Counted from the first letter of the stretch, positions 1 to 63,595 are shown. The stretch: 63,595 bases of DNA from a virus (IMGVR_UViG_3300028549_001550); one strand, 5' to 3'. The notes: generated by a model not told the origin, from the sequence alone. Translations and numbers: made by a program.

Positions 1-255
1 CAGACAAGGCAAAGCCTGTTAAGGAAACCAAAGCCGCCAAAGCCGCCGAGACAAAACAGCACCTTTCAAATGCCATGGATAAGCTGAAACAAATCAATGC
101 TATATTTGGTGAACGTGGTAGTTTCTCTACTGAAAAGATGGATAAAAACATCTATGCACAAATAAAACCATTATTACAAGGCGCATTGGAAGATATTATT
201 GCAGCAGGTAAAACGGCAACAGAATTTGTGAAAATATCAATGGAAGCCTTGACTC
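1..255. repeat. Terminal overlap, copy A (identical to 63341-63595). The contig closes into a 63,340-bp circle.
   Basis: Read directly: bases 1-255 (cagacaaggcaaagcctgtt...tggaagccttgactc) recur base-for-base at 63341-63595. The repeat lies inside an open reading frame, so an assembly overlap of a circular or permuted genome is more likely than a physical non-coding DTR. Confidence 0.95.
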
Positions 256-3200
256 CAGACGCAAGACCGTATTTTGCTAAATTTGTCCAAGAGGATATGG
301 TAGTTCCAGAAACCCCAACAACAAAGGAGAAGGAAGATGGCAATACCGAAAGTAACGATAACGCCGGAGGACAGGACCAACAAGGATTGGGTACTGAAAA
401 AGGTGAAGAGGTTCCAGGAGGACGAGACGGGACTTTGGCCGAGCCTGGGGAAATCGGATCTACAGATAAGGATGATGGGAGTTTGGGAGTACAGCCGCCC
501 AAAGATGTATCGGAAACTACAGATAATGGGGATAGTAAAGGAGATGGCTTACGTCCTGGTCTGCTCAATGATGGAGACGGAGGACAAACTAATGGCGTCG
601 GGGATGCCGGAGACGGACGCACACCAACAGGCGGCGCAAACTTGGCTGATAATGGACCCGGAGGAGGAACCGGAACCGGAGGAAGAAGATTAGGGAATTA
701 TCATATTGATGACCCTAAAGCCCTGATAGGCGGCACCCCCAAAAAGAGATTTGCCAAAAACAAAGCCGCCATTGAAACGTTTAATACAGTTATGAATGAA
801 GGTCGAGAACCTACGGCAGAGGAGAGGGATATCCTTGCTGGCTACATTGGTTGGGGATCGTTCGGGCAGGATCTATTTCAAGGATCATGGGATAGGGCAA
901 AGTATAAGGATGGATGGGACAAGGAAAATGATTGGTTGCGTGAACACCTTGGGGAATCTGCTTGGAAATCTGCACAAACATCCATTCTTAACGCTCACTA
1001 CACCGACCCACCAACAGTAACCTCTATATGGAAGATAGCAAGGCAGTTAGGGTTTAAAGGTGGCAGGGTGCTCGAACCGTCCATGGGTATTGGTAACTTT
1101 TTCGGTCTGATGCCCAAAGACCTCAAGGCAAAGAGTGATTTAACCGGCATAGAGCTTGATGAAACAACGGCAGAAATGGCAAGGATGCTTTATCCTGATG
1201 CCAATGTTCAGCAGATGGGCTACGAAAAGAGCGCAACCGCCGATGGTTTTTACGATCTTGTTATCGGTAACTGGCCATTTGCCAAGGACGGGCCGGTTTC
1301 CAGGAGATACGATCAATACCGATTAAGCCTTCACGATTTCTTTTTTGTTAAAGCCTTAGATCAGGTTCGCCCCGGCGGGTTGGTTATCGGGATCACCAGT
1401 TCCGGGACCATGGACAAGAAGGGAACCGTAGCAAGAATGCAGATGGAGAAGCGTGGCAAGCTCATTGCCGCTTACCGAATGCCCATGGGTGCCTTTAAAG
1501 AGTATGCAGGGACATCTGTAGTTGCTGACCTTCTCGTTTTTCAGAAATATTCCGAATTGAACCCAGGTAAAAGTCTTACTCCTTGGGGGCTACAGGTGCC
1601 ACTGACAAACCAAGAAGGTGTTGCCCTTACTGCCGATGATGGTAGACCGATCATGGTTAATGAATATTGGGACCATAAACCAGATCATGTTTTAGGCCAT
1701 ATGACAGTTGGCCATGGAACCACGCAAGGCCGTATGGGTATGATTGTCGAAAGGCCAAACGGATATGAAGGGACATTGGCATTTTTAGCGGAAAACTTCC
1801 CTTCAGATATCATGCCAAAGCGTACAAACATGGAACACGTCAAGTATATCAGCAATCACACCAAGGAAAAACAGAACAGCATCACAATTACAAAAGAGGG
1901 AGAGCTTTATACTGTACGGGGCGAACGTCTTGCCAATCTGAATGATGAGATAAAATATTCTCTTAAAGACCCCAAAAAAACAAAAGCCCGTGAAAACGAG
2001 ATCAAAGCCATGGTGGAGATAAAAAACCTATATGGCAAACTTCTTGACACCGAGCGTGATGGAAAGCCAAATGTTGAAGAGATAAGAACATCTTTAAACA
2101 ACGCCTATAAAGCATTCACGAAGCAATGGGGGCCACTGAATAGTTCTTTTGCTTTAAGTATTTTCAAAAAGGCAAAGGACCCTTTATCAGCCGCAATAGT
2201 CGCCCTTGAAAATAACAAAGGGACAAAAAAGAAACCTGTTTATATACCATCCAAGATTTTAACAGAATCTACGCAACGAGCTAAAAAGAGGATGGAAAAC
2301 CCATCCATAACGGATGCCTTTGTTCTGGTAAGGAATGAAGAGGCAAGGACCGTTGACCTTGATGATATTGCAAAGAGAAGCGGGAAATCTGTTCAAGAGA
2401 TCAAAGAAGAGTTGTTTTCCAAGGATGCTATTTTTGAAACGCCAGCAGGTGTTTTTGAAGTCAAAGACATTTATCTGTCTGGAAATGTCCGGGAAAAACT
2501 ATTAGAGGCTCTTGACGCAAAAGAAAAGGGGCTTGATATGGAAAGGAATATCAAGGCTCTCAAAGAGGTAATGCCTAAAGACGTTCCATATTTCAGTATA
2601 GAGGTAAACCTTGGTGCGTCATGGATACCCTCGGATGTTTATATGCAGTTTTTTCAGGATGTGGCGAACCTGCCAGAACAAATAACAGACCAGATACATA
2701 TTACGCCGTCAGTCAATGGATGGGTTGTAAAGTTTGATGATGCCAGAAGATTAAACGATAGAGACGAAGTACGATCCCTTTGGAGCACCAAAGATGAACA
2801 CGGCAATATCGAATGTGCGTTTACAAAGATTGCCAAGTCTGCGTTTTCTGGACAAGCCATTACCATTAAATACAAAGACGAGGATGGCAACGAATTTACG
2901 GACACGGCGGCATCTTTAAGGGCAAACGAAAAGGTTGAATCTTTCCGGGAATCCCTGAAAGATTGGATTTGGAAAGATATGGACCGGAGAGTCATGCTTG
3001 AAGAACATTATAACCAAACCATGAATGCCTTTGCCACTCCAGAGTATGATGGTTCTTTCCTCTCTTTCGATGGAATGATGCTTAAAATGGGGTCGGAAGA
3101 GTTCAACCTTAGAAAGCACCAAGTTGATGCAATATGGAGAGGCGTTGCAAACGGGAGGGGATTGTACGCACATGAAGTAGGCACCGGAAAAACCTTCACC

Positions 3201-6200
3201 ATGGGGGGGATTGCCATTGAATCCAGGCGTTATGGATTGGCTAAGAAACCCTTAATCCTGGCGCACAATGCGAATAGCGCCTCTGTAGCATCCGACATTC
3301 AAAAAATGTATCCGGGTGCCAGTGTTCTCTATATAGATAATCTTGCACCAGAGAAAATACAATCATCATTGTATCAGATTGCCAATGACGATTGGGATGT
3401 TGTTGTTATGCCTCACTCCCTTATGGAACGTCTTACCTTATCAAGGGAAACATTAAACAAATTGGCCGCCGAGGATATAGCAAACCTTGAGAATGAAGCT
3501 ATTGAATCTGCGGAAGAAGAGGGTTTTGACATATCCGATATCCTTGATGATGCAGAGGCGTTAACAAAGATAAGGGGTGCCTCTACTGCGAAGGAAATTG
3601 TAAAACAACGAAACAAGATCATCGCAAACATTGAGAAACAAGTCTTAGCCGCCAGCAAGGAGGGTGCCGTTTCTTTTGAGGATCTTGGTATTGATATGAT
3701 GATTATTGATGAGGCTCACGAGTTTAAAAAGCCGCCCCTGGTGACCAAGATGAAGGTTAAGGGACTCAACACAGCCACCAGTAACAAAGGTATCGGGTTA
3801 AACCTTTTAACGGGTTATATTAAAGAGCTAAACCAGGGGAAAGGTGTTCATCTGTTTACCGGGACACCTATTACAAACACCCTGAACGAGATTTATAACC
3901 AGATGCGGTACACCATGTCAGACAAGATGGAGGATGCCGGGGTTCTTGGGTGGGATTCTTGGTTTAACACTTTTGCCTCGGTCAATAATGATGTGGAACG
4001 AACCTCAACAGGTGATTACGAGTCTGTTTCCAGGCTGTCAGGGTTTCATAACGTGTCTGAGTTGCGGCGGTTTGCAGGTCAGTATATGGATATTGTCTTT
4101 GCCGATGATATGCCGGAGTTTGTTCCCAGGGAAACAGCATCAGGTAAAACCCTGCTCGATGAAAGCCTTAGTGAGGCAGACCGTGCCGAGTTGATAGAGG
4201 GACGGGTCGAAGGTGGAGAAATAAAGGGTAGGCCCTACAAGAAAATTATCAATGAAGTTGCTGATATGTCCACTGAACAACGGGAAATCTTAGAAGGCTT
4301 AATCAGGAGAGCGAGGTCTTTTAAAGAGTCTGATGGAAAAACACGCTATGAGATTATGAAAACTGGAGATAACCGAAGCCCGGTTATCATAGAGACTGAT
4401 GCCGCCAAAGCAGGTTTTGACACAAGGCTTTTTGATAAAGATTTGTCAGAGCATCCAGATAATAAAATCAACCGATGTACTTCAAATGTTTTAGAGCATT
4501 ACAAAGCCCACAAAATGACGGCACAGGTCATCTTTATGGACAAGGGTTATAATGATACTGCTGATAGAGTCCGTAGAGTTGGAGGTCTAAAAGTTAAAGT
4601 AACCGTTGATACCTTTAACGCAGCTAAAGACATTGTGGCTAAACTTATAGCCGGTGGAATAAAGACAGAAGAAATCGCAATTGTTAAAGGTACAACTTCC
4701 AAAATAAAAAGATTAGAGATTGCCGAAGCTGTGAGTAGGGCCGAGATCAGGGTGGTCATAGGAGCAACCTCAACCCTTGGAACTGGCGTGAATATGCAGG
4801 AGAATCTAAAGGCCATGCACCATCTTGACGCTCCATGGATGCCCGGAGAACTGGAACAGCGGAACGGACGAGGCCATAGACAGGGCAATAGATGGAATAC
4901 TGTTCTTGAGTATAGATACATAACAGAGAGTATTGACGCAAGGAGATGGCAGGTTTTAGCCAAAAAGCAGAAGATCATTACAGATTTTCTGAAAGCTAAA
5001 GACGGTATGCGAACCATTGAAGGTGATGTCCTTGACATGGGAACCAGTGCTCTTGACGATATCACCGCCAGCTTTTCAGAAGCCGCCGGGGATGCTCGTA
5101 TCTTGACCATTGAGAAGTTGAAAAAGGATATTGAAAAACTCTCAAAGAAGCAACGTCTCCATGATACGGGGGTTGTCGAGGCAAAGCAGAAGGAGAAGAA
5201 AAACAGACAGGATATCCCAAATCTTCAAAGTGATGCTGATAAGGTAAATGCCGATTTGTCTCTTTACAATGCTGAAAAAGAGAAACCCTTCTCCATCACG
5301 ATCCAAGGGAAAGAGCATACTGACCGGAAGTCTGCCGACAAAGCCCTTGAAAAGATTTTTCTCAAGAACCATGAGACACGAAAGGATAAGACCGGGAGAC
5401 TTAAAGTTGCAGAAGAAGAAAAAATAGGGGAGTACAGGGGTTTTGAGCTTGTTAAGGTACTTAATTTTGTAACACAGCCTGAGTATTATTTACAAAAAGA
5501 CGGTGCTTATGACGTATCTCCATCTATGGGTAGTCTTGATTCTTTATCGAGAACCATGGGCAAACTGGCAGATGAAATAGCACGAGCCATAGGGGATAAA
5601 CAACGGGCCATTAAAAAGTATGAGCAGGTCCAGCAAGAGGTCTTTGGGCAAACAGGCGCCCTAAACAACAAGAAACATATGCTTGCATCAATCCAGGCAG
5701 ATATGGCGGCATTTCCAGATGCACCCCCAAGATGGCTTGCCCAGGGAGCACCCGTGGGAACCATGGTCTTTAATAAGGGTGTGGAATACGAGGTTGAAGG
5801 GCATAGGGCCGGGGACCATGATTTTTATGTCATGGCTTTTAAAGAGGAGGGAGGATCCACAGAGCATAAAATATTCTCATACAACGAGGTCAGGGATTTA
5901 AATAACCTGCCTCTCTATGAAGATTTGTCTCCCAAGGCAAAGGAGAAACGTCATTCGGATATAGGGGCCGCCGGATTCGGACAGCAAGGGCTTGATAATG
6001 CCAGATTGCAGGAACCTCTGTATTCCACTGAAAACACACCTTCCGGGGAGAACGTCACCTTACAGCAGATCCAGAAGATGTTCCCAGGGCAAAACGTAGG
6101 GCTCTCTCCTGATAACTCGGTTTGGGTACGCCTCAAGAACGGCGCAGGATTGAGAATCAAAGGCGTTCGGCAGGTATCGGAAGGTAAGTACCTATTTTCC

Positions 6201-9200
6201 ACAGAAACCGGGAAGATGGACCAGAACGGCCTCATTGCCGGGAAATATGCCAACAATGAGATTGAGCTTGTTGACGGCGTGGCCAATGGTGGAACGCTTG
6301 CCCATGAATCGGTACATTTTCTTGAAGATATAGGCGTTATCGACAAGGCTGATATCTTTGTCCTTGACCATAAGATTGCATCCCTGGCAAAGAACGGAGA
6401 CCTTGACTTTAATCTTGTCCAGGACCAGAGAGAGAACCGGGCCGTGTTCCTGGCGCAATACTTGGCAGATCGTGAAAAGTTCAGGGGAACGGTAGTAGGG
6501 AAGATCATTCAGAGAGTTGCAGATTTCCTTGATTCCATGGTTGCCCTGGGAAAAACATCGGTGCGTAAGATTGCCAAGGGGATTGAGAGCGGGAAGATAT
6601 TCGACAAACCAACAGACGGAGTTGAGCAACCGGGCTTTCAATTCGAGATAAGAACCAAACCGGCACCGAAAAAGACTATTCAGGCTTTCAAGTTGTTCAA
6701 AGTGAAGAAAGGTAGCCCTGGGAAACTGTTCCCCTTATATGTAGAAGCGAACAAACCAGTTGAGACAGAGGTTTGGCATGATGCAGAGATAGGGCCTATG
6801 ACAGACAAAGGGAAGGTCAAGTCAAAGTTAGGGCCCCTAGCATTTAGACCAGGATGGCACGGAGGGGACGCTCCTGTTGCAACACATATTGGTGAATCAG
6901 GAGATGAAACCCCAACGCCACGGTTTAGACCAGCAGATCAGGTATGGGCAGAGGTAGAGATGGCTGATGATGTTGATTGGCAAACCGAGGCAAACAAAAG
7001 GGCTACATTGACGAAGGCCGGGAAGCCCATTGCCAGGACAGCACATATAACAGACCAATTACCCATTGACGGGTCGTACCGGTACAAAACCAATTCAAAC
7101 ATGACTGGTAGCTGGATTATATCAGGAGCCATGAGGATTAAAAGGGTTCTCACGGACGAAGAGGTTTCCAAGATCAACCAGGAACTTGGGGTTTCAGACC
7201 TGCCCAGGGCGAACGGGGCAGTATTTGACTCCAAGAAATACGGGTTTGATGAGACTCAGTATTCTACAGTCTCCACCAAAAAAGACAAAGGTTATGCAGG
7301 GGAGCAGTTCAAAGGCATCCTCCCTGAAAGCGTAGCCAAGGGAATGGAGAAAAGCCGAGGGATAACCCCCACAGCATTGATTGACAAGCTGAAAAGTTTC
7401 CTGAGCGACATGAAAAAGGAGATGGATCATTTTCCTGAATTGACCAGGATGGAGCCGGGGGTTAAAGCCTCATCTGCAAGGGAGATCCTAAGACGGCATC
7501 AAGATATCCCGGACATGGTGCAGGACAAGACGGCAAGGGAGATGTCAGCCATTCTTGAGAACATGAATAAGACAGAATATGATGCTTTTGCAATGGAATT
7601 AATCCTTGGTGACGAGGTGCGGTCTATTAATGAAGGGATCCGGACTGATGACAATTTACCATGGGGTTTCACGAGTACGAAAGAGATGGTTGAATCTCAT
7701 AAAAGATTACAAGAGATGAACAAGAAAACCCCCAAGGTTGCCAAAGCCCTTGCAGACCGCCGAGCCTTTCAAAAAAGTGTAGCAAAAGACTTGGTTAAAT
7801 ATGGGATCATGAAAAAAGAGATCCTAAAAGATGGTGATTATTTCCATCACCAGATCCTTCTATATTGGAATAACAAAGCCGCAGAGCAAAAAGGTATGGG
7901 TACCTCTTCAAGCGAGGTTCGTTCCAAGTGGCGTCCCTGGATGGCTGCACGTAAAGGGTCACCCCTGGAATACAACACCGAGTACATGGAGGCTGAGTTC
8001 TTTGCCACGGCATCACAGTTGGCACAGGTGGAAACCGCCAAAAACCTGAAACAGATCAAAAAAGAAAACGATATCCTGAAGGATCTCAAGCAGGAAGCCA
8101 AGGCAAAGAATAATGCCCTTTATGCTGCATGGGTCGAAGCCGAAACAGCGCAAGACATGAACTTCAAGGATCCGGTAAAGCCCTTTTCTACTCGGATTGC
8201 CATTGGGTTTGCAGGTTTATCTAAGGCTGTTCAGGATGGGACTATCACCTATGACAGTGAGTTTCTGGACGTTGTGAACGCAATCCGAAAAGCCGGGGAG
8301 CTTCAAAAGGCAGACAAAGCCGCATGGAAAGATGCTGTAGACGATAACCCAAAGGTGAGCATGGCAATCAACCACCCCAGGTTGTTCCCCTTCCTCTCCC
8401 ACCTCCTGGAGAAACAGCACGAAGGAGCGATGTCGGCAGCCTTAATTTACAAAGGGATCAAGGGCCGTGACAGAGTTATGAAGGAATCCCTGGGTAAAGA
8501 CTTCAAGACCTGGAAACAGCTTATCCCTGAAGGTTACAAAGAATGGAAACCAGATCCCAAGGGTGGAGCATTCTTTGTTAACTCCATTACAGATCAGGTC
8601 CTTCAGGGGGTATTGACCGGGGAAAGGAGCCTGGAAGAGAAGGATGTCAGGAAGGTCTTGGCCAGGGGTAACCCACCGGTGTGGGTCCTGCCAGAAGGTT
8701 TGGCAGATACAATGGACAACTTCCGGTCCCATACCGCAGAGGGACGGCTGGCGCAAACATCGGAATGGGCCTTGTCAGCATGGAAACAGTATATCCTGTT
8801 AAACCCGTTCTCAGCCTTAAAATACAACATAAACAATATGTCAGGAGATTTAGATGTGGTGCTGGCATATCGCCCGGAGATTGCAAAGCCCGGGCCGGTC
8901 AAAAAAGCCATGCAAGACCTTATTAACTGGTCCAAGTACAAGACTCTCTCTCCAGCCTTGAAAGCGGAAATGGATGAAGCCATGAAGCATGGTGTTATCG
9001 GAAGTGGATTCGCTGTGCAGGAAGTCACGGACACGCTAAAGCTGATGTCCTCGGAAACCTTTGTCAAAAACATTTTGACTGAGGAAAAAATAGGCATGGC
9101 GGCGGCATACTGGAAAAAGGTCAAGAACGCCTCCCAGATTCGGGAGAACATTCTCCGCTTATCTGCTTTTAGATGGTTCAAAGGCCAGTTGGAGGCAGGG

Positions 9201-10358
9201 CAGAAAGTCTATGGTGCATCCAAGGTCGAAGATATCGACAACCTTGTTGTGGATGGGAAGCACGTTGAAGCCGCCGCAAAGATGGCCAGGGAACTCTTGG
9301 GGGATTATGGGAACATATCCAGGCACGGGGATTATATTCGGAGACGCTTGATCCCCTTTTATTCCTGGATCGAGATAAACGCTCCCAGATACGCCTATTT
9401 GATGCGTAACCTTAAACATGAGGGTGAGACTACCAAGAGACTGTCGTTTACCATGGCAAAGAAAGGTGCGGTTTTTCTTGCCAAGGCTTCAATGCTTGGT
9501 GGTGCTGTGATGCTGTTTAACTCTATTATGTTCCCTGATGAATTGGAAGAGCTCGGAACGGCACAGAGACGGCAGTTACATTTGATCCTGGGGCGCAGGG
9601 ATGACGGGTCAATAATGACGGTGCGATTCCAGGGAGCGTTATCAGATGCCCTGTCATGGTTTGCCAAGGAGGATCTACCGGAAGATATCAAGGATCTGGT
9701 AGCTGGCAAATCAACAATTCAGGAACAATTGCTCGATGTCCCCAAGTCAATATTGAACAAGGTGGTAGGCGGCATCCGTCCGGAAGCCAAGGTCTTATTT
9801 GAAACCCTTACCGGGCAGTCAACATACCCTGATGCTTTAAACTCTCGTCCTATCCGGGATAAACTTGAAAACGTACTGAAAACCTTCAAGCTGGATATCC
9901 CATACAGATACATAGCAGGGAGGCCGCAACGAGGTAACAGCACGGTAGAGCATTTTATAAGCGATGTCTTGAGCACTATCACTTACACAACGGAACCAGG
10001 GGTCCAGCCATACTACGACACCAGGAACACGGTTTTTGAATGGAAAGAGAAACAGGGCATTGAATCAGGGCAAGGGAAGCCGACCAAACGAGGCAACACC
10101 CTTTATTACTACAAACAGGCGTTGAAATATGGGGATTTAAAAGCCGCATGGAAATACAAACAGGCATATAAAGACTTGGGCGGGACCATGCAAGGGATGC
10201 AGCAATCAATCAAGATGGCTCACCCCCTGGCCGGAATCAATGTGGTACAGCGAAGGGCCTTTAGGCAGAGTTTAACCCCTGGCGAGGACAGGAAACTTGA
10301 ACAGGCATTGAAGTGGTACCATTCCACCTATGTCGAGAAGCGGAGAGAACTGCAATAG
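3..10358 (+). CDS. Giant polyvalent protein, C-terminal part (continuation of 58471-63594). Contains N6-adenine MTase, SNF2 helicase, an HExxH zincin motif and a long unassigned C-terminus.
   Basis: Codons 3-74 upstream of Met75 are open (DKAKPVKETKAAKAAETKQHLSNA) and duplicate 63343-63414. The ORF is 3,427+ aa long, has recognisable enzymatic motifs (see sub-features), and ends with a stop at 10356-10358 followed by a terminator. Confidence 0.9.
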   Translation, partial: DKAKPVKETKAAKAAETKQHLSNAMDKLKQINAIFGERGSFSTEKMDKNIYAQIKPLLQGALEDIIAAGKTATEFVKISMEALTPDARPYFAKFVQEDMVVPETPTTKEKEDGNTESNDNAGGQDQQGLGTEKGEEVPGGRDGTLAEPGEIGSTDKDDGSLGVQPPKDVSETTDNGDSKGDGLRPGLLNDGDGGQTNGVGDAGDGRTPTGGANLADNGPGGGTGTGGRRLGNYHIDDPKALIGGTPKKRFAKNKAAIETFNTVMNEGREPTAEERDILAGYIGWGSFGQDLFQGSWDRAKYKDGWDKENDWLREHLGESAWKSAQTSILNAHYTDPPTVTSIWKIARQLGFKGGRVLEPSMGIGNFFGLMPKDLKAKSDLTGIELDETTAEMARMLYPDANVQQMGYEKSATADGFYDLVIGNWPFAKDGPVSRRYDQYRLSLHDFFFVKALDQVRPGGLVIGITSSGTMDKKGTVARMQMEKRGKLIAAYRMPMGAFKEYAGTSVVADLLVFQKYSELNPGKSLTPWGLQVPLTNQEGVALTADDGRPIMVNEYWDHKPDHVLGHMTVGHGTTQGRMGMIVERPNGYEGTLAFLAENFPSDIMPKRTNMEHVKYISNHTKEKQNSITITKEGELYTVRGERLANLNDEIKYSLKDPKKTKARENEIKAMVEIKNLYGKLLDTERDGKPNVEEIRTSLNNAYKAFTKQWGPLNSSFALSIFKKAKDPLSAAIVALENNKGTKKKPVYIPSKILTESTQRAKKRMENPSITDAFVLVRNEEARTVDLDDIAKRSGKSVQEIKEELFSKDAIFETPAGVFEVKDIYLSGNVREKLLEALDAKEKGLDMERNIKALKEVMPKDVPYFSIEVNLGASWIPSDVYMQFFQDVANLPEQITDQIHITPSVNGWVVKFDDARRLNDRDEVRSLWSTKDEHGNIECAFTKIAKSAFSGQAITIKYKDEDGNEFTDTAASLRANEKVESFRESLKDWIWKDMDRRVMLEEHYNQTMNAFATPEYDGSFLSFDGMMLKMGSEEFNLRKHQVDAIWRGVANGRGLYAHEVGTGKTFTMGGIAIESRRYGLAKKPLILAHNANSASVASDIQKMYPGASVLYIDNLAPEKIQSSLYQIANDDWDVVVMPHSLMERLTLSRETLNKLAAEDIANLENEAIESAEEEGFDISDILDDAEALTKIRGASTAKEIVKQRNKIIANIEKQVLAASKEGAVSFEDLGIDMMIIDEAHEFKKPPLVTKMKVKGLNTATSNKGIGLNLLTGYIKELNQGKGVHLFTGTPITNTLNEIYNQMRYTMSDKMEDAGVLGWDSWFNTFASVNNDVERTSTGDYESVSRLSGFHNVSELRRFAGQYMDIVFADDMPEFVPRETASGKTLLDESLSEADRAELIEGRVEGGEIKGRPYKKIINEVADMSTEQREILEGLIRRARSFKESDGKTRYEIMKTGDNRSPVIIETDAAKAGFDTRLFDKDLSEHPDNKINRCTSNVLEHYKAHKMTAQVIFMDKGYNDTADRVRRVGGLKVKVTVDTFNAAKDIVAKLIAGGIKTEEIAIVKGTTSKIKRLEIAEAVSRAEIRVVIGATSTLGTGVNMQENLKAMHHLDAPWMPGELEQRNGRGHRQGNRWNTVLEYRYITESIDARRWQVLAKKQKIITDFLKAKDGMRTIEGDVLDMGTSALDDITASFSEAAGDARILTIEKLKKDIEKLSKKQRLHDTGVVEAKQKEKKNRQDIPNLQSDADKVNADLSLYNAEKEKPFSITIQGKEHTDRKSADKALEKIFLKNHETRKDKTGRLKVAEEEKIGEYRGFELVKVLNFVTQPEYYLQKDGAYDVSPSMGSLDSLSRTMGKLADEIARAIGDKQRAIKKYEQVQQEVFGQTGALNNKKHMLASIQADMAAFPDAPPRWLAQGAPVGTMVFNKGVEYEVEGHRAGDHDFYVMAFKEEGGSTEHKIFSYNEVRDLNNLPLYEDLSPKAKEKRHSDIGAAGFGQQGLDNARLQEPLYSTENTPSGENVTLQQIQKMFPGQNVGLSPDNSVWVRLKNGAGLRIKGVRQVSEGKYLFSTETGKMDQNGLIAGKYANNEIELVDGVANGGTLAHESVHFLEDIGVIDKADIFVLDHKIASLAKNGDLDFNLVQDQRENRAVFLAQYLADREKFRGTVVGKIIQRVADFLDSMVALGKTSVRKIAKGIESGKIFDKPTDGVEQPGFQFEIRTKPAPKKTIQAFKLFKVKKGSPGKLFPLYVEANKPVETEVWHDAEIGPMTDKGKVKSKLGPLAFRPGWHGGDAPVATHIGESGDETPTPRFRPADQVWAEVEMADDVDWQTEANKRATLTKAGKPIARTAHITDQLPIDGSYRYKTNSNMTGSWIISGAMRIKRVLTDEEVSKINQELGVSDLPRANGAVFDSKKYGFDETQYSTVSTKKDKGYAGEQFKGILPESVAKGMEKSRGITPTALIDKLKSFLSDMKKEMDHFPELTRMEPGVKASSAREILRRHQDIPDMVQDKTAREMSAILENMNKTEYDAFAMELILGDEVRSINEGIRTDDNLPWGFTSTKEMVESHKRLQEMNKKTPKVAKALADRRAFQKSVAKDLVKYGIMKKEILKDGDYFHHQILLYWNNKAAEQKGMGTSSSEVRSKWRPWMAARKGSPLEYNTEYMEAEFFATASQLAQVETAKNLKQIKKENDILKDLKQEAKAKNNALYAAWVEAETAQDMNFKDPVKPFSTRIAIGFAGLSKAVQDGTITYDSEFLDVVNAIRKAGELQKADKAAWKDAVDDNPKVSMAINHPRLFPFLSHLLEKQHEGAMSAALIYKGIKGRDRVMKESLGKDFKTWKQLIPEGYKEWKPDPKGGAFFVNSITDQVLQGVLTGERSLEEKDVRKVLARGNPPVWVLPEGLADTMDNFRSHTAEGRLAQTSEWALSAWKQYILLNPFSALKYNINNMSGDLDVVLAYRPEIAKPGPVKKAMQDLINWSKYKTLSPALKAEMDEAMKHGVIGSGFAVQEVTDTLKLMSSETFVKNILTEEKIGMAAAYWKKVKNASQIRENILRLSAFRWFKGQLEAGQKVYGASKVEDIDNLVVDGKHVEAAAKMARELLGDYGNISRHGDYIRRRLIPFYSWIEINAPRYAYLMRNLKHEGETTKRLSFTMAKKGAVFLAKASMLGGAVMLFNSIMFPDELEELGTAQRRQLHLILGRRDDGSIMTVRFQGALSDALSWFAKEDLPEDIKDLVAGKSTIQEQLLDVPKSILNKVVGGIRPEAKVLFETLTGQSTYPDALNSRPIRDKLENVLKTFKLDIPYRYIAGRPQRGNSTVEHFISDVLSTITYTTEPGVQPYYDTRNTVFEWKEKQGIESGQGKPTKRGNTLYYYKQALKYGDLKAAWKYKQAYKDLGGTMQGMQQSIKMAHPLAGINVVQRRAFRQSLTPGEDRKLEQALKWYHSTYVEKRRELQ
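309..690 (+). other. Gly/Asp/Thr-rich disordered linker of the giant protein
   Basis: Translation reads ...DGNTESNDNAGGQDQQGLG...NDGDGGQTNGVGDAGDGRTPTGGANLADNGPGGGTGTGGRR. It has no hydrophobic core. Confidence 0.75.
690..1546 (+). other. N6-adenine DNA methyltransferase domain (class I SAM-dependent) inside the giant protein
   Basis: The SAM-binding motif I VLEPSMGIGNFFG starts at 1068. The catalytic motif IV variant VIGNWPFAKD has its GNWPF at 1266-1280. The order motif I then motif IV is as in gamma-class amino-MTases. Confidence 0.8.
3100..5000 (+). other. SNF2/SF2 helicase domain inside the giant protein
   Basis: Four motifs are present: LRKHQVDAIW (3108), motif I HEVGTGKTF (about 3171-3197), motif II IIDEAHEF (DEAH at 3708-3719), and motif III FTGTPITN. 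Motifs V/VI read LGTGVNMQ...LDAPWMPGELEQRNGRGHRQGN, with the QRNGRGHRQGN portion at 4857-4889. Confidence 0.85.
6303..6317 (+). other. HExxH zincin-like metallopeptidase motif inside the giant protein
   Basis: Translation reads GGTLAHESVHFLEDIG, with H-E-S-V-H at 6303-6317. Only the short motif is visible; the fold is not verified. Confidence 0.45.
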
Positions 10359-10377: not shown

Positions 10378-10414
10378 CCCCCCTTCGGATTCAACCCCAA
10401 AGGGGGGTTTTTTA
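10378..10414 (+). terminator. Rho-independent terminator after the giant gene
   Basis: Stem CCCCCCTT (10378-10385) pairs with AAGGGGGG (10400-10407) and is followed by T7 (10408-14), 20 nt after the stop codon. Confidence 0.85.
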
Positions 10415-10430
10415 TTCTGTTTAAAAAGGT

Positions 10431-29273: not shown

Positions 29274-29300
29274 GGTCTTATCTCCTTTATGTCTGGTTAT

Positions 29301-29558: not shown

Positions 29559-29578
29559 GATCTTATCTCCTTTGTTAT

Positions 29579-29596
29579 GCCCCGATTGCTCGGGGC
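29579..29596 (-). repeat. Intercistronic GC hairpin repeat (copy 2)
   Basis: The 18-nt hairpin gccccgattgctcggggc is identical to the one at 29301-29318. Confidence 0.75.
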
Positions 29597-44744: not shown

Positions 44745-44745
44745 T

Positions 44746-46018: not shown

Positions 46019-46020
46019 AC

Positions 46021-46311: not shown

Positions 46312-46317
46312 AAAAAA

Positions 46318-49646: not shown

Positions 49647-49657
49647 GATAAAAAACT

Positions 49658-52949: not shown

Positions 52950-52950
52950 A

Positions 52951-54540: not shown

Positions 54541-54552
54541 GGGGGGGGGAGT

Positions 54553-57467: not shown

Positions 57468-57472
57468 ACCAG

Positions 57473-58471
57473 ATGAATTTAGATTCGATACTTGATAAGG
57501 CGTGGAGCTTTTTAGATAAATCAATGCAGAGCAAACGGGAACAATCGTTAGCAGAAGGAGAACGCCTTAGTGCCGTTGAGTCTGAAAAAGAAAAAACAAA
57601 ACGGATGGAGTTATCTTCCCTGGAAAAAATACAAGCGCTTGTAAATCAGGGTGCAATAAACAAAGAGGAGCTTGTCAACCAGGGGTTACTATCCAAACAA
57701 CAGTTGGAAAACTCAGGGTTGATGGATAGGCAGGAGCTTGTCAACCAGGGTGAATATAAAAGACAGGAACTTGTCAACTCTGGATCTTTGGCTAAACAAA
57801 AGCAAAGTGACTCGGGGGCATTGGAGAGGTCTAAACTTGATTCAGAAACATCGCTTGGAGTGGAGAGGCTTAGGGGGAACACTACAAGAGATACCACAAC
57901 CGCAACCATGAAAATGTTTAACGATGACGGCACCCCTGCAAATGATAGGATTATTCGTCCAGCCAGAGACACAAACATTAGATCAGAAGTGATCACGCCA
58001 GAACAGAGCGCTATATTTAACCCTTCATCGGAACAGATAGATAATCCTACAAAGAAAGAACCATTATCATTGGTTCCAGAGGCAGGAGTGGCAAGACATC
58101 CAACGGCTCGATCTATGAATGCTCTTCCTGGTGGGCCTGGGAGTGGAATGACACCACAGGAAACTCTTTACCCGGTTCCACGGCAGGAGCCGGAGACATT
58201 ATACCCGGTTCCCCAGGAGCCGGAAACTCTTTATCCGGTCCCCCAGGAGGAAACTCTTTATCCGGTCCCACAGAACAGCAACCGTCAGATGATGCCGCTT
58301 CCTTCCAAGGAAACTCTTTATCCCGTTCCCCAGGAGGAAACCCTTTATCCGGTCCCACAGACAAAAAAGAAGAAACCACATACATCCAAGGAAACCCTTT
58401 ACCCTGTTCCACAGCAGGAAACCCTATACCCGGTTTACCCGACCAACAATAAAAGAAAGAGGATGTTTTAA
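57473..58471 (+). CDS. Repeat protein with (E/Q)LVNQG-type N-terminal repeats and eight ETLYPVP(Q) C-terminal repeats
   Basis: The N-terminal repeats read QALVNQGAINKEELVNQGLLSKQQLENSGLMDRQELVNQGEYKRQELVNSG. The C-terminal repeats begin QETLYPVPRQEPETLYPVPQEPETLYPVPQEETLYPVPQ... The stop overlaps the giant-gene ATG. Confidence 0.7.
   Translation: MNLDSILDKAWSFLDKSMQSKREQSLAEGERLSAVESEKEKTKRMELSSLEKIQALVNQGAINKEELVNQGLLSKQQLENSGLMDRQELVNQGEYKRQELVNSGSLAKQKQSDSGALERSKLDSETSLGVERLRGNTTRDTTTATMKMFNDDGTPANDRIIRPARDTNIRSEVITPEQSAIFNPSSEQIDNPTKKEPLSLVPEAGVARHPTARSMNALPGGPGSGMTPQETLYPVPRQEPETLYPVPQEPETLYPVPQEETLYPVPQNSNRQMMPLPSKETLYPVPQEETLYPVPQTKKKKPHTSKETLYPVPQQETLYPVYPTNNKRKRMF
58160..58441 (+). 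repeat. Eight irregularly spaced copies of the 21-nt unit GAAAC(T/C)CTTTA(C/T)CC(G/T)GT(T/C)CC(A/C) encoding ETLYPVP
   Basis: Read directly. The copies are synonymously diverged, and spacers are 3-9 nt for most copies, with two longer ones. Confidence 0.85.
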
Positions 58472-61400
58472 TGCCATTATCCGACCGTACCATGAAGTAT
58501 TATGATGATATCATAACCAAAAATCCAGACAGAGACAGGAAAGCGATAACAAAAGGGATTGAAGCCTTTCACGGGGAAGGGAATACCACGGAATGGTTGC
58601 CAACAGTTGATGAACTTGAGCGCTCTGGCCGAAAAGCTATGGCTACAGGGTTGGATATGTCCACAGGTCAGGGGCAGGGGCCACAGGCTGAACCTAAAGG
58701 CAATGTGTTAGGTGCCATTAAAGATATTGGGGTAGGGTTGATCCGAACACCTATAGATACAGCCACATCTATAGCAAGTATCATTGATGACCCTTACACC
58801 GAAGATGGTTTCTTTGATCCAATGATTGACAGCAGACGAAAGGATCAAGAAAAATATATTAATGCTCCTGGAGCAGAAGAGATAGCTGTACCTGGAACAA
58901 GCGTTTCGCGCCGTGAAATCAGAGCAGGAATGTCGAGCTTTGGTTATTCCATGGCGGCAATGGGTGCCTCCTTTATTCCAAAAGTGGCAGGGATGGCTGT
59001 CGGGGCTGTTAGCGGATCCACTATCCCTCTTGCAGGAACATTGACAGGGGCAGCTATTGGCTTTACCGCCGGTGCCGCCGCTTCTGGTAAAGCCGCCTAC
59101 GATATGGATAAGAACGCATTTGTCCGGGAATACAGGGCTTTCTTGGATAAAGACGCTGGACGGCACATAAACGATTCAGAATTTGCAGAAATGTTACCTG
59201 GAAAGGTTGCCGATGTTCTACATGAGCATGGCCTTCATGAGGCAGGGTGGGAAGGTCTTGCCACTATGGTTGAACGTGGAGCCATGGATAAGATATTTAA
59301 GGGCGGCGGGTTGACAGCTAAGGCCGCTAAGGGGTTGGTTGGCCTTATAGGGTTTGAATTAGGATCAGAATCAGCAACACAGATTGGTCAAACAAATGCA
59401 GAAGTAAACCTTGGCATGAAGCCAGAGGATGAACGAAGGTCTTTTGCGAGCCCACAAGATTGGGCCACATCTGCAAGAGAAGTAGCGCCAGCAATCGCTT
59501 TAATGAGTGGAGGGATGGCTACAGGATCATATCTTGCAGGAAAAGCGTTCAACAAAAAAGAAGGAGCGGAAGATCCTCCTCCTGTGTCTGATGCCGAAAA
59601 GATACTGCTAACTCCCAATGAATTGGGCAAGACTCCAGAACAGGTTTTACTTGATGGCGCTATTAATGATGAAGATGATGTAAAAGCGGCATCAGAATTT
59701 TCAGAGGAAGAATTAGACGGTGTACTTGGGGAACAGACCGGGGAACCTTCCGGAACACCAGCCGGGGAACCTACAAAGGCAAGCACACCAGAAGATGAAT
59801 ATGCCGCTTATGAAGCGGAACTTGCAAAGTATCGTCAGGGTAGGGAAACACCAGGGGAAACAGGGGAAGCCCCAGGGGAACCTGCACCAAAGGGGCAAGG
59901 CCAAGATGAAGCAGAGTGGGAAACAGAGTTTGCGAAGTACAGAGAGACAGCAGAACCTGTTAAAGACGAAGAGGTAGTACCTGAGCCGATCGTAACAGCA
60001 AAGGAGCCAGTGGTTGAGCCTGATGTTGAGCCAGTCATTGAGCCAGTGGTAGAACCTGTTAAGGATCCTGAGCCTGAGCCGGTAATCAAGCCTGATGTTG
60101 AGCCGGTTAAAGACGAAACCCCCATCGAAGCCCCTGCTATTGTTGCCGAGGAAGAAACCCCTGAGCCTGTAATCGAACCTGAACCAATCATTCCAGAAAA
60201 CGAGGAAGCCCAGGGAGTCACCTCGGGGCAAGCGGTCACCTTCACCAATAAGGGTGGGGAAGAGATATCTGGAACCGTTACCAAGGTTGAAGGTGACAAG
60301 GCGTGGATTGAAGATGGGGAAGGGAAAAAATTCAGGTTGCCACAGACGAAATTAACCCCCATCGAAGCCACAGCAGAAGAGGCAGAAGAGGTAAAAACAC
60401 TAGGGGCCCTAAATCCCCTTGATGTAAAAGTTGAGGAGTCTAAAGCAAAGGAAGCCTTTACCCTTACAGGCACTCAACAAACTTTTATTGATAAAAACAT
60501 TGAAAAACTTGGATCCATTGAATCTGTAAACAAGGAATACCCAGGCAAGGATAATGTTTCTCAGTATGCACGAGCCAGGGCCTTAGAATTTTTTCCTGCC
60601 GAGGATTCTACCGCTTTACCTGAACCCGGCATCGAACCATCCATAGAGACACAAGATAAAGAGGTTGCAAAACAGGCGTGGGAAATAACACCAGATGAGA
60701 TATCAAAACTTTCCCCTGAAGCCGCCCGGAAAACCCTTTCAGAACTGAACGATCAAACTTCTGTAGATTACGGAAAAACTACACCGTCCTTTTTAGAAAA
60801 AGACAAGCTCGAAAAAATCAACGCAACAAAGACCTTGCTTAGAGAACAAGCGGGGCAAGCTCCATGGCAACGCACACAGGCTCAAATGCAACGATTAGAA
60901 GGTATGCCAGCAAAGAGGCACCAGAAATTTGTTGAACAGGCCATATCAGAAGGAAAACCCGTTCCTAAAGAAGTTCTTGAAGCCTACCCTGATCTTACAA
61001 GCAACACCCCCAAGACTGATAACGTAATGGAGGATGAACCGCCAAAGGCTCCAGAAGTAAAAGCATCACAATATAAGGATTGGCCCGAGAGTTATACCGC
61101 CCCCACAGAAACAAGTGGAGAGGTAAAAAAGACCATGACGGGGAGAAACGCAACCCCCTTTCCTTCCTTGGACACAAAGAGCAAGGGAAGGGCAAGGGTT
61201 TCTGTTAAGCATCATCATAGGTGGTTGCTTGTCAACGCTCTTGCTGAAGCCACAGCACGAGAGGACGAAACAAACCTCCTCACATTCAACGGGCATAACA
61301 GCGAGAAACTTTCACCTTCTGATGTGGACGCCATGTATTCATACCTGTTTAAATGGGAACCGCAAAAAAAACAGCCTGGACCTATTGTGATGCCAGCCGT

Positions 61401-63594
61401 TGCAGACAGCGAAATCAAGGCAGACGGAAATACCGTAGTTGTTCCCATACCCGAAGCTAAAGCCAATGCTTTAGAACCAAAAGAACAGAAATCGTATCTT
61501 TTAAAAGAAATTGATGCTGCCATAAAACAGGTTTCATCTCCAGAACCATCAGGGGACATGGTTACGATCAAGATCCCTGGGGATGGAGAATATAATATCA
61601 TTAATACCGAGGCGGCTTTGGGAAAGTTTAAAAAGAGGGTATCGTCTTTCTCTGCCGAGGATGTTGTGAATCACGAAGTGCCAGCGTCCAAGACAGGAGA
61701 CAAGCGGCAAAATAGGCGAGTCACAGATTTTTCCGGGGATTATGTCAGGGACTACGCTCCTAAAAACTCATCCCTGCCAAGAAGGAAACCAATAAAACAC
61801 GATGGGGTATTGATTGACGGATATTATGGTGAAGGGTTTTATTCTAATGGAACATTTATTGTCAAAATGGACAAAGCTCCAGGAGGCAGAAAAGACCTTG
61901 GAAAATTTGATACTTCTCATCTACGTAGGATGATAACCCCTGTTCCAGAGCTTCTTATTCCTGCAAAGATTGGTGCCGAGGTTTACGACAATAGTGGGCT
62001 TAAGACTTTTGACGCATACCATGGTGTTCATGTCTACTCTAAAGAAGCCCATGAAGGAGAGCAAAGGCATTATCTCTATAAACCGTCTGAAATAGATGCC
62101 ATAATGTCTAAATTTCCCAAAGCCACACCATCTATATATATGCTTAAAGAGAAGGAAGGACAGCTATTTTTCAAAGATAACAATGGGGATATTGTGGGTG
62201 TTGCGACTCCATTTAGAAAACTTCCTGGAGAATACGGGAATCACATAGGTAAAGCAAAAAGCATTCATGAACTTGCCCTGGGCAGGATGGAAAAGGGGAC
62301 AGATACAAGTGTAAAGACCAAGGAAGAAATCCTTCAAGGGGCAAAGGACCGGGCCAGCCTTTTAAAGGAAGCTAACCGCCTACTGACATACAGGGGCGCA
62401 GATATGAAATACGTCAAAAACCGTTTGACTCCAGCCATAGCGCAAGCACACATAGGGGACAATTCTCATCTCAGGAATGCGGTTGAAGATGTTAAAGGGG
62501 TTATTTCCCTACATAACCCTTCCTTTGCTGCAAACACTCAAGAAACAGAGGACCAGGCACCCAAGGCCATCCCGGCAAATTACAAATCATCTCCAGGTGA
62601 AAAGATCAGGATAGGGGATTATGTAAAAGCGGTAAAGGATATTGACTATTACGGGAAAGAACCATTACGGGTTCTGCATGAAACAACCTCTGGCATCAAA
62701 GTTGAAACTCTGGAGGGGAAGTCTAAGGGCGGTCATTATTCCCATAGTGACTTTGAAAAGGTCATGTCAGAGGACCAGGCACCAGAAGCCAAGCAGGAGC
62801 CTGTCATCCCGCCCAAGAAATTAGCGGAAGCACAAGCAGAAGCCAAAAAAGCCGGAGGTATAAGGCTTGTTTGGCAACACCCTCAACATGGGCATTGGAT
62901 TGTGTCAAGCCGTGGCCCTGGTGGGATGGATGTCGATATTTACAGCGTCACGCCTGATGGATCCGTTGATCTTTGGAGGGGCAAAGGGGACAGTGGTAAG
63001 CTGTCCGAATCGCCAACAGAAACCGTGGAAGCCAAAGACGAGGATCCCTTGTCTCCGGATAAACTTATTGCAGAAGGGGAAAGACAAGATGCCGAGAACC
63101 CAGGAAGCGCCACGCCAGAATCAATCGTTAACGCTCTTTTAGGGAAGTCTCCGGACAAGGTAACAGCCAAAGACGAGGATCCCTTCTCACCTGATAACCT
63201 GCTTGCAGAATGGGACAGACAAGCCGAGGCAATAAAGGCACTGGAGACTGAGACAGCCAAAGCGAACGAAACTACGGGAAAGCCAAATAGATCAACACCA
63301 CCTAAAGCCGTAGCCCCTGAGTCAGTTGTTAAATCTCTTTCAGACAAGGCAAAGCCTGTTAAGGAAACCAAAGCCGCCAAAGCCGCCGAGACAAAACAGC
63401 ACCTTTCAAATGCCATGGATAAGCTGAAACAAATCAATGCTATATTTGGTGAACGTGGTAGTTTCTCTACTGAAAAGATGGATAAAAACATCTATGCACA
63501 AATAAAACCATTATTACAAGGCGCATTGGAAGATATTATTGCAGCAGGTAAAACGGCAACAGAATTTGTGAAAATATCAATGGAAGCCTTGACT
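58471..63594 (+). CDS. Giant polyvalent (multi-domain) protein, N-terminal part. It is open to the window end and continues at 3-10358. The full ORF on the circle is 15,228 nt / 5,075 aa.
   Basis: ATG 58471 overlaps the stop of the upstream gene (TAATG), and an in-frame TAA lies at 58450. I translated every codon from 58471 to 63595 and found no stop. The ORF is absent from the supplied track only because it never terminates in the window. The frame is continuous with ORF 75..10358 through the 255-bp overlap. Confidence 0.9.
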   Translation, partial: MPLSDRTMKYYDDIITKNPDRDRKAITKGIEAFHGEGNTTEWLPTVDELERSGRKAMATGLDMSTGQGQGPQAEPKGNVLGAIKDIGVGLIRTPIDTATSIASIIDDPYTEDGFFDPMIDSRRKDQEKYINAPGAEEIAVPGTSVSRREIRAGMSSFGYSMAAMGASFIPKVAGMAVGAVSGSTIPLAGTLTGAAIGFTAGAAASGKAAYDMDKNAFVREYRAFLDKDAGRHINDSEFAEMLPGKVADVLHEHGLHEAGWEGLATMVERGAMDKIFKGGGLTAKAAKGLVGLIGFELGSESATQIGQTNAEVNLGMKPEDERRSFASPQDWATSAREVAPAIALMSGGMATGSYLAGKAFNKKEGAEDPPPVSDAEKILLTPNELGKTPEQVLLDGAINDEDDVKAASEFSEEELDGVLGEQTGEPSGTPAGEPTKASTPEDEYAAYEAELAKYRQGRETPGETGEAPGEPAPKGQGQDEAEWETEFAKYRETAEPVKDEEVVPEPIVTAKEPVVEPDVEPVIEPVVEPVKDPEPEPVIKPDVEPVKDETPIEAPAIVAEEETPEPVIEPEPIIPENEEAQGVTSGQAVTFTNKGGEEISGTVTKVEGDKAWIEDGEGKKFRLPQTKLTPIEATAEEAEEVKTLGALNPLDVKVEESKAKEAFTLTGTQQTFIDKNIEKLGSIESVNKEYPGKDNVSQYARARALEFFPAEDSTALPEPGIEPSIETQDKEVAKQAWEITPDEISKLSPEAARKTLSELNDQTSVDYGKTTPSFLEKDKLEKINATKTLLREQAGQAPWQRTQAQMQRLEGMPAKRHQKFVEQAISEGKPVPKEVLEAYPDLTSNTPKTDNVMEDEPPKAPEVKASQYKDWPESYTAPTETSGEVKKTMTGRNATPFPSLDTKSKGRARVSVKHHHRWLLVNALAEATAREDETNLLTFNGHNSEKLSPSDVDAMYSYLFKWEPQKKQPGPIVMPAVADSEIKADGNTVVVPIPEAKANALEPKEQKSYLLKEIDAAIKQVSSPEPSGDMVTIKIPGDGEYNIINTEAALGKFKKRVSSFSAEDVVNHEVPASKTGDKRQNRRVTDFSGDYVRDYAPKNSSLPRRKPIKHDGVLIDGYYGEGFYSNGTFIVKMDKAPGGRKDLGKFDTSHLRRMITPVPELLIPAKIGAEVYDNSGLKTFDAYHGVHVYSKEAHEGEQRHYLYKPSEIDAIMSKFPKATPSIYMLKEKEGQLFFKDNNGDIVGVATPFRKLPGEYGNHIGKAKSIHELALGRMEKGTDTSVKTKEEILQGAKDRASLLKEANRLLTYRGADMKYVKNRLTPAIAQAHIGDNSHLRNAVEDVKGVISLHNPSFAANTQETEDQAPKAIPANYKSSPGEKIRIGDYVKAVKDIDYYGKEPLRVLHETTSGIKVETLEGKSKGGHYSHSDFEKVMSEDQAPEAKQEPVIPPKKLAEAQAEAKKAGGIRLVWQHPQHGHWIVSSRGPGGMDVDIYSVTPDGSVDLWRGKGDSGKLSESPTETVEAKDEDPLSPDKLIAEGERQDAENPGSATPESIVNALLGKSPDKVTAKDEDPFSPDNLLAEWDRQAEAIKALETETAKANETTGKPNRSTPPKAVAPESVVKSLSDKAKPVKETKAAKAAETKQHLSNAMDKLKQINAIFGERGSFSTEKMDKNIYAQIKPLLQGALEDIIAAGKTATEFVKISMEALT
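58930..59100 (+). other. Gly/Ala-rich glycine-zipper-like hydrophobic segment in the giant protein (possible membrane-inserting region)
   Basis: Translation reads MSSFGYSMAAMGASFIPKVAGMAVGAVSGSTIPLAGTLTGAAIGFTAGAAASGKAAY, with repeated small-xxx-small spacing. Confidence 0.5.
59953..60198 (+). repeat. Acidic Pro-rich (E/D)P(V/I) low-complexity linker of the giant protein
   Basis: Translation reads EPVKDEEVVPEPIVTAKEPVVEPDVEPVIEPVVEPVKDPEPEPVIKPDVEPVKDETPIEAPAIVAEEETPEPVIEPEPIIPE. At DNA level there are reiterated gttgagcc/gagcctg units. Confidence 0.8.
63031..63228 (+). repeat. Internal duplication within the giant ORF (AKDEDP-x-SPD-x-L-x-AE-x-x-RQ motif twice)
   Basis: 63031-63096 and 63166-63228 share gccaaagacgaggatccctt and then diverge. 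The peptides are AKDEDPLSPDKLIAEGERQDAE and AKDEDPFSPDNLLAEWDRQAE. Confidence 0.8.
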
Positions 63595-63595
63595 C
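63341..63595. repeat. Terminal overlap, copy B (identical to 1-255)
   Basis: Same as copy A; exact 255-bp identity read by eye. Confidence 0.95.

Follow-up and report, generated by a model that had tools for sequence, protein, structure and literature searches.

The viral contig IMGVR_UViG_3300028549_001550 is 63,595 nucleotides (nt) long and contains no N; this whole stretch of DNA is called the window below. We focused our analysis on its largest gene, which crosses the contig junction and whose product is referred to here as the giant. The giant gene is one continuous gene, the last of the structural block, and a mosaic with a DarB-type core, conserved terminal modules and exchangeable payloads. 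From ATG 58471 the reading frame was open for 1,708 codons to the window end. Bases 1-255 were identical to bases 63341-63595, so that the unique length is 63,340 nt. When the sequence was circularised to 63,340 bp, the frame reached a TAG stop at 10356-10358 and comprised 15,228 nt, encoding 5,075 amino acids (aa) or about 562 kDa and occupying 24.04% of the genome (15,228/63,340). The 5' part (58471..63340, plus strand) encodes aa 1-1624 and runs from the ATG to the start of the terminal repeat without a stop. The 3' part (1..10358, plus strand) is in frame from base 3 and, in the circularised translation, encodes aa 1625-5075 and the stop codon. The exact copy of bases 1-255 at the other end (63341..63595) encodes aa 1625-1709. 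At this base composition, a run of 5,075 codons would stay open by chance with a probability of about 10^-132.

The start of the frame was well delimited. An in-frame TAA lies upstream at 58450, no alternative start codon occurs between 58450 and 58471, and a GAGG-type Shine-Dalgarno sequence is located about 9 nt 5' of the ATG. The open reading frame (ORF) called at 75..10358 (3,427 aa) covers only the C-terminal 67.5% of this frame. The original prediction, made from the sequence alone, had described a single ORF crossing the contig junction and filling about 24% of the genome, starting at ATG 58471 in a TAATG overlap behind TAA 58450 and open to 63595. It had also given bases 63341-63595 as equal to 1-255 and the listed 75..10358 ORF as the C-terminal two thirds of one gene, and every one of these statements was reproduced.

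The 255-nt overlap marks a circular or circularly permuted genome, and the window is a complete, circularly closed tailed-phage genome of about 63.3 kb. A length of 255 nt is the maximum k-mer of some assemblers, and this match hints that the overlap is an assembly overlap rather than a physical repeat. The Bcep22-like relatives are reported to be terminally redundant, circularly permuted headful packagers (PMC9144972). The join was tested through an independent relative, by a scan of IMG/VR with giant aa 1380-1760. The scan found the contig IMGVR_UViG_3300027985_001426 (L003), whose longest open frame is at least 4,551 aa. The L003 giant aligned with the window giant in one high-scoring segment pair (aa 1567-3824, 57.8% identity, 2,267 columns), which spans the repeat-encoded aa 1625-1709 and flanks on both sides. 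Since the L003 frame is continuous over the repeat-encoded region, the sequences at the two window ends are contiguous in a homologous gene. An exact 40-nt pattern beside the junction had no match in IMG/VR.

The scan bears directly on the alternative that the giant ORF is an assembly artefact, in which the overlap misjoins two unrelated ends or the contig is a chimera, and the giant is really two genes. All that speaks for it is that nowhere in the linear window does the ORF run unbroken, and that reads were lacking. The frame, however, is kept across the exact 255-nt repeat and is matched in the continuous L003 alignment; finished phage genomes hold relatives of comparable length, and the domain order of the giant is colinear with these relatives. 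We regard the artefact as effectively excluded.

The order of the mosaic was as follows: an N-terminal module at aa 72-341, about 1,300 aa of linkers and unassigned sequence, the enzymatic core at aa ~1870-3300, a region with an HExxH motif, a domain of about 200 aa, and a C-terminal module (C-module). The core was the best assigned part. Giant aa 1743-3532 matched the family phrog_10089, "DarB-like antirestriction" (E=0, 1,463 bits), at profile positions 1461-3215 of 4,647, and the N- and C-terminal thirds of the profile were unmatched by the giant. A tblastn search with the giant gave matches in 138 phage records.

An N6-adenine DNA methyltransferase was located at aa ~1870-2210 (738..1760, plus strand) by alignment with P1 DarB and by PHROGs 10089, 11801 and 3820. 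Giant aa 1953-2202 aligned to P1 DarB aa 88-327 (E 3e-19). Motif I (LEPSMGIGNF, aa 1982-1990; LEPSAGTGVF in DarB) and motif IV (GNWPF, with NWPF at aa 2047-2050; GNVPF in DarB) were both conserved, and the Pfam Eco57I/Methyltransf matches were weak. An SNF2/SF2 helicase followed at aa ~2650-3300 (3078..5030, plus strand), located by Pfam and by the P1 DarB alignment, with Walker A GTGKT at aa 2684, DEAH at aa 2860 and motif VI QRNGRGHRQGN at aa 3243. DarB aa 1035-1194 and 1479-1659 corresponded to giant aa 2843-2998 and 3214-3405, respectively. The Pfam E-values were 2.1e-9 for Helicase_C, 1e-4 for ResIII and 2e-3 for SNF2-rel, and a PDB sequence search returned one weak match only, the SNF2 helicase 1z5z. 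The predicted methyltransferase and helicase content, and the parallel drawn with P1 DarB, are therefore borne out by DarB-homologous blocks with intact motifs. The second parallel that had been drawn, with the N4 virion RNA polymerase, was rejected, as no RNA polymerase domain or similarity was found anywhere.

The C-terminal part of the helicase also showed weak NCBIfam similarity to DISARM DrmD, to DpdE and to a phospholipase-D anti-phage protein. This similarity is what favours the view that the giant is not packaged but acts in the lysogen or infected cell, in the manner of DISARM or BREX, to provide defence or superinfection exclusion. The scores were 26-52 bits against curated cut-offs of 500-1,100 bits, which indicates a shared helicase fold only, and the DISARM, Dpd and phospholipase-D readings were rejected. 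The giant gene is, moreover, co-oriented with and overlaps late structural genes, and its homologues are found in virions. A cellular defence role is accordingly very improbable.

The N-terminal region gave a different kind of evidence. Giant aa 72-341 (58684..59493, plus strand), a glycine-rich stretch, was 67% identical to the N-terminus of two proteins, P0001 and P0002 (P0002 aa 27-296). P0002 is an ART-PolyVal protein of 3,033 aa that is unrelated to the giant beyond its first ~300 residues. Its gene (10001-19102 of L002, a 60-kb Logan contig of SRR22315508) follows adaptor and structural genes, holds a place in its contig equivalent to that of the giant gene, and has the same one-base overlap with the gene upstream. 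Because only the N-terminus is shared, together with the equivalent place and the start/stop overlap, the comparison of sequences suggests that aa 72-341 form a portable N-terminal module for virion loading. It is a candidate virion-targeting or ejection module.

Within this module, aa 150-210 are weakly hydrophobic and glycine-zipper-like, with a Kyte-Doolittle peak of 1.42, and the Pfam glycine-zipper match was sub-threshold (E=0.0016). A membrane segment had been predicted in the giant. Hydrophobic peaks do occur, here and at aa 4781-4799 of the C-module (1.54), but both lie under the usual transmembrane threshold, and this part of the prediction is only weakly supported. An acidic, proline-rich linker of low complexity extends over aa ~400-580 (59668..60210, plus strand; D+E 0.27-0.29, Pro up to 0.19). 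In it, 12-nt tandem repeats (60004-60107, repeat family D3) encode a Pro-Val-rich (E/D)P(V/I)x sequence. About 1,040 aa without family assignment follow (aa ~581-1624; 60211..63340, plus strand), and no Pfam, PHROG, NCBIfam or PDB match was obtained for aa ~581-1745. Only two short similarities were found in aa ~581-1624, of aa 882-964 to H66 gp60 and of aa 1446-1520 to the L003 giant. A large-database search with aa 1-1900 returned two proteins only; low-complexity words swamped this search and left aa ~340-1445 unsearched in depth. A 59-nt duplication was also seen in this part of the gene (63030-63088 and 63165-63223, 86% identical), encoding AKDEDP(L/F)SPD.... A disordered linker rich in glycine and aspartate (aa ~1730-1865; 318..725, plus strand; Gly 0.14-0.23) leads into the enzymatic core.

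Downstream of the core, aa 3628-3839 (6012..6647, plus strand) form a candidate zincin-like metallopeptidase region, with HESVH at aa 3725-3729 and a glutamate in RENRAVF at aa 3767-3773. The HESVH and the glutamate some 40 residues downstream were kept in four of five aligned relatives; the HExxH and the downstream glutamate are common to the giant, the L003 giant and two further proteins, P0013 (62% identical) and P0005. An HExxH plus a distal glutamate is the pattern of polyvalent-protein metallopeptidases (PMC5512222). No peptidase family model of Pfam matched aa 3628-3839, and the AlphaFold2 (AF2) model was poor there, with confidence below 50 in most of the region. The peptidase motif that had been predicted is thus present and conserved, but neither a family model nor a reliable structure model accompanies it.

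The next domain, aa 3841-4044 (6651..7262, plus strand), matched phrog_30118 (2.8e-57), a family of unknown function, and carries the motifs FPLYV, RPGWH and YRYKTNxNMTGxW. It was present in 119 of the 120 best matches of a search of 5.8 billion proteins, at ~50-64% identity. Its position in these proteins varies, and its companions are ART-PolyVal, LPD38, LPD39, GNAT or strawberry-notch domains. The AF2 model was confident (predicted local distance difference test, pLDDT, ~90). No Pfam or NCBIfam family matched the domain, and no significant fold neighbour was found in PDB. The best PDB fold match, a fragment of the cholix-toxin ADP-ribosyltransferase, had E=0.46 and was not accepted.

The last ~1,000 aa of the giant (aa ~4060-5075; 7308..10355, plus strand) form a helical C-module, which was delimited by profile search, AF2 and BFVD. 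Its invariant or near-invariant motifs are GDYFHHQ, RENxLRL, GDYGNIS and IPFYSWxEINAPRY. An exhaustive HMMER search of 1.84 billion cluster representatives recovered 2,150 representative clusters with E<=1e-3; for 1,443 of them the E-value was 1e-30 or lower. The match ended at the C-terminus, or within a few dozen residues of it, for nearly all of those listed. Proteins with the C-module reach 6,639, 5,612, 5,267, 5,140 and 5,102 aa, so that the giant, though large, is exceeded by others. Different payloads precede the module: one carrier (P0130, 4,552 aa) has a methyltransferase, SNF2 and ART-PolyVal, and another (P0123, 3,169 aa; C-module 71% identical) has ddrB-ParB and RadC. The C-module region of 82 close homologues had no Pfam domain and no informative name.

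The AF2 model of the C-module, built from an alignment of 62 sequences, was mostly helical (pLDDT 80, predicted template modelling score 0.76). It had no fold neighbour in PDB, the solved ejection proteins included. In BFVD there were 54 viral fold neighbours at E<=1e-3, the best at 9e-31. Some were named "Large polyvalent protein associated domain 38" (E 3e-7 to 5e-7), one was the last segment of the giant of Ralstonia phage Alix (E 4e-7), and others bore LT_GEWL, RelA/SpoT, ART-PolyVal, Zeta-toxin and DNA-methylase names or the name "tail protein". As compared by hhalign, the C-module was weakly similar to LPD38-type tails (Prob 37%, E 3.5e-4) in a RENxLRL...GDYGN...PF block. The alignment with the PLxRFG tails of USP_18, H66 and SopranoGao was colinear over 700 columns and not significant (Prob 3.6%), and the hidden Markov model (HMM) of the C-module family did not match the PLxRFG proteins. 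As judged from profiles and the predicted fold, the C-module is probably a divergent form of the C-terminal module that phage-type polyvalent proteins typically carry.

The C-module also bears on the possibility that the giant serves first of all in virion structure, as an ejection or internal-core protein comparable to T7 gp16 or the ejection proteins of P22. In that case it would help to build a channel for DNA delivery in a short-tailed phage, its enzymes being secondary. The giant always stands at the end of the virion module. Its C-module is large and helical with a hydrophobic stretch, the fold relatives in BFVD include LT_GEWL (lytic transglycosylase) and "tail protein" names, and for the homologues of DC1 and Pavtok the annotation gives a lytic transglycosylase domain, which T7 gp16 also has. 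The glycine-zipper-like segment near the N-terminus, itself sub-threshold, weakly recalls pore-forming regions. On the other hand, no lytic transglycosylase domain was detected in the giant with Pfam, unlike the annotation of the DC1 and Pavtok homologues; the C-module model matched no solved ejection protein, and the hydrophobic stretches fall short of the transmembrane threshold. The best-conserved region across isolated phages is, besides, the methyltransferase-helicase core. A mainly structural role, the leading alternative, seems unlikely as the primary one, and it overlaps and is compatible with the role proposed below.

We propose, with a probability of about 0.75, that the giant is the window phage's version of the very large DarB-like virion protein that is characteristic of the Bcep22-like/933W-like group, and a polyvalent protein of the phage type that Iyer et al. 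(2017) described. By analogy with P1 DarB, its role is probably to protect phage DNA on entry. Judged from its relatives, the giant would be made late and built into the capsid, probably through its conserved terminal module or modules, and would exit the virion together with the DNA when a cell is infected. Its methyltransferase-helicase core may then act on the entering genome and weaken restriction, an effect that P1 DarB has on type I systems. Conceivably, the polyprotein might be cut by the HExxH domain into separately acting pieces, and the remaining domains may hit further host targets. Roles of the N- and C-modules in loading and ejection, and an interaction of the weakly hydrophobic stretches at aa 150-210 and 4781-4799 with a membrane, are more speculative steps.

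Several observations weigh against this proposal. The functional assignment comes from P1 DarB, to which parts of the core are ~26% identical, and ~45% of the giant is without assigned function. P1 DarB needs DarA, DdrA, DdrB, Hdf and Ulx for its packaging, and none of the five had a tblastn match in the whole window (E<=0.01); their homologues are also reported to be absent from the Lessieviruses (PMC9144972). The literal PLxRFG motif, present in USP_18, H66 and SopranoGao, was absent from the giant by regular-expression search, and NCBIfam gave no PLxRFG match in it. The Pfam models LPD38 (PF18857), MPTase-PolyVal and all other LPD models failed on the giant even at E=1, and when ten segments of the giant were searched at E<=1, no model of a PolyVal, LPD, lysozyme or peptidase domain matched. 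The structural genes beside the giant gene show no relationship to those of USP_18, H66, DC1, SopranoGao and L003.

A further, tentative possibility concerns the ~45% of the giant in question (aa ~340-1745 and the HExxH region), which might consist of undescribed effector domains. The domain at aa 3841-4044 may be a new enzymatic or host-targeting domain in wide use among phage polyvalent proteins; pointing that way, it is conserved at ~50-64% identity across very different polyvalent proteins, is confidently folded and has no Pfam or NCBIfam family and no match to a solved structure. The C-module would then be a common delivery handle, by which any payload is loaded into the capsid and passed out through the tail. 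We consider this extension doubtful as a whole.

The surroundings of the giant gene were consistent with a tailed phage. Upstream lie a large terminase (32286-33806), a portal (34198-36366; phrog_156, 8e-166) and a major head protein (37328-38431; phrog_334, 1e-99). The nearest GenBank relatives of the portal, at ~42-44% identity, were those of the Burkholderia Lessieviruses BcepMigl, DC1, JC1 and CSP3, of Ralstonia phages and of Pseudomonas phage Skulduggery. As judged by sequence, the head genes show a distant relationship to the Bcep22-like/933W-like phages of ~60 kb, of which two described members, Bcep22 and JC1, are podoviruses. When 25 kb of the structural region were compared with the GenBank phages by megablast, no match was obtained, and GenBank therefore contains no phage that is close at the DNA level.

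The giant gene closes a long plus-strand structural block, and the prediction that it is the last cistron of the late/structural operon agrees with this position. The gene directly upstream (57473..58471, plus strand; 332 aa) has TAA as its stop, and the final A of this codon also begins the giant ATG (TAATG). Its product has VNQG-type repeats in the N-terminal part and about nine ETLYPVPQ copies in the C-terminal part, as expected from its earlier description as an overlapping repeat-protein gene, and neither PHROGs nor Pfam placed it in a family. At 46318-58471, 5' of the giant gene, eight large ORFs in a row (332-747 aa) had no or marginal matches in Pfam and PHROGs. They had no similarity to the corresponding regions of USP_18, H66, SopranoGao, DC1, L002 and L003, and in neighbour-gene synteny there was essentially no similarity to these six.

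On the 3' side, a terminator-like hairpin (AACCCC-AAAGG-GGGGTT followed by TTTTATT; 10393..10416, plus strand) was located 35 nt past the giant stop by consensus match only. It had been taken for the strongest terminator in the window. Its stem (with the T-run, 10393-10409) is only 6 bp, however, whereas a terminator-like site on the minus strand at 16350-16322 has 11 pairs, and the claim was not upheld. No lysis cassette was found after the giant gene, unlike in USP_18, H66, SopranoGao and DC1. A small serine recombinase/invertase (10778-11344; phrog_125, 9.5e-57) is encoded just downstream.

Elsewhere in the window, the two copies of a 26-nt inverted repeat (44111-44136 and 46550-46575) are 96% complementary and flank 2.4 kb of sequence. 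Inside lies a tail-fibre-like gene (45302-46018), whose product has Mtd_N, collagen and phage-tail-tip domains. Together with the serine invertase, the segment at 44111-46575 might be an invertible host-range segment that switches tail fibres, but a simulated inversion only truncated the flanking ORFs. In the minus-strand early region, exact 23-nt direct repeats with a GC-rich hairpin (GCCCCGATTGCTCGGGGC) occurred at 29296-29318 and 29574-29596, 278 nt apart. A 37-nt repeat (97% identical) occurred at 16339-16375 and 17595-17631, 1,256 nt apart, and overlaps the long-stemmed terminator-like site. Both pairs may act in regulation or termination. The whole window yielded no tRNA genes.

The results have a practical side. 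Because the giant gene crosses the contig ends, linear gene callers split it or leave it out, and the largest gene of this phage is missed unless the contig is rotated. The giant adds a divergent and very large (562 kDa) member to the virion-borne DarB-like polyvalent proteins and makes the build of the family clear, in which conserved N- and C-terminal modules bracket interchangeable payloads. This modularity suggests a general loading and ejection handle, which is testable and perhaps exploitable for the delivery of cargo proteins. No new category is involved, since earlier publications already cover the class, the place of its genes in the genome, its association with virions and the antirestriction role presumed for it. 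The points of remaining interest are the large unassigned N-terminal half and the widespread, unannotated ~200-aa domain with the handle-plus-payload modularity. The guess of a multi-enzyme ejected effector was in essence the accepted reading for the family, but the rarity that it implied was not found: the same architecture and genome position have been deposited and described in dozens of phages, with members up to 6,639 aa.

Among isolated phages, Pseudomonas phage vB_PaeM_USP_18 (MT491207) resembles the window phage in its 63-kb genome and in the position of its giant, gp31 (QLI49405.1; 4,947 aa, annotated "hypothetical protein"), which is likewise the last and largest gene of the structural block and of similar total length. 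The core was 44.9% identical to gp31 over giant aa 1746-3598 (~1,850 aa), whereas the N-terminal ~1,745 aa and the C-terminal ~1,480 aa had no BLAST similarity to it. USP_18, but not the window phage, has the literal PLxRFG motif and a lysis cassette directly downstream. DC1 gp67 (4,650 aa) and SopranoGao gp06 (4,369 aa) were 28% identical to the window giant in the core. H66 gp60 (3,787 aa) is annotated as "PLxRFG domain-containing protein", and according to its record its presence in the particle was "verified by mass spectrometry". The genes of these three proteins hold the genome position of the giant gene. The N- and C-terminal regions of the giant had no similarity, by BLAST or HMM, to USP_18, H66, SopranoGao or DC1.

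The phrog_10089 giants, a family of Bcep22-like and F116-like phages, comprise Bcep22 gp75, DC1 gp67 and JC1 gp69 and those of Ralstonia phages, Erwinia phage PEp14, Klebsiella phages SopranoGao and LASTA, and Serratia phage Parlo. In related podophages, giants of 3,800-4,950 aa occupy the same genome place as the window giant. JC1 gp69 is a DarB-like protein of 4,515 aa that takes up 22.1% of the JC1 genome, and mass spectrometry of CsCl-purified virions gave 51 unique peptides of it and ranked it second by score among the virion proteins (PMC9144972). The window phage is like the Bcep22-like phages in its portal (~43% identical) and in the genome share of its giant (24.0% versus 22.1% in JC1). 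Unlike the Bcep22-like giants, the window giant is larger and has a different N-terminal region, and its C-module is related to theirs only at the fold level or by weak profile similarity.

Like P1 DarB, the giant has an N6-adenine methyltransferase followed by an SF2 helicase, and motifs I and IV and the helicase blocks of the two proteins align, with an identity of ~25-27% over ~600 aa. P1 DarB, an experimentally studied antirestriction protein of 2,255 aa, is less than half the size of the giant and is without the N- and C-terminal modules. The polyvalent-protein concept, with its packaging context and processing metallopeptidase, was set out by Iyer, Burroughs, Anand, de Souza and Aravind in 2017, and LPD38 was reported as specific to phage-type polyvalent proteins (PMC5512222). 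Like these proteins, the giant joins several unrelated effector-type domains in one polypeptide encoded near portal-terminase virion genes, with a candidate HExxH processing peptidase and a C-module whose predicted fold is common with LPD38-named proteins. The kinship with phage polyvalent proteins, also part of the original prediction, is supported by the relatives of the giant, which carry ART-PolyVal, LPD1/3/5/22/38, ddrB-ParB, RadC and MuF_C domains. The class of DarB-like/polyvalent virion proteins is itself not new, and the giant is a divergent addition to it.

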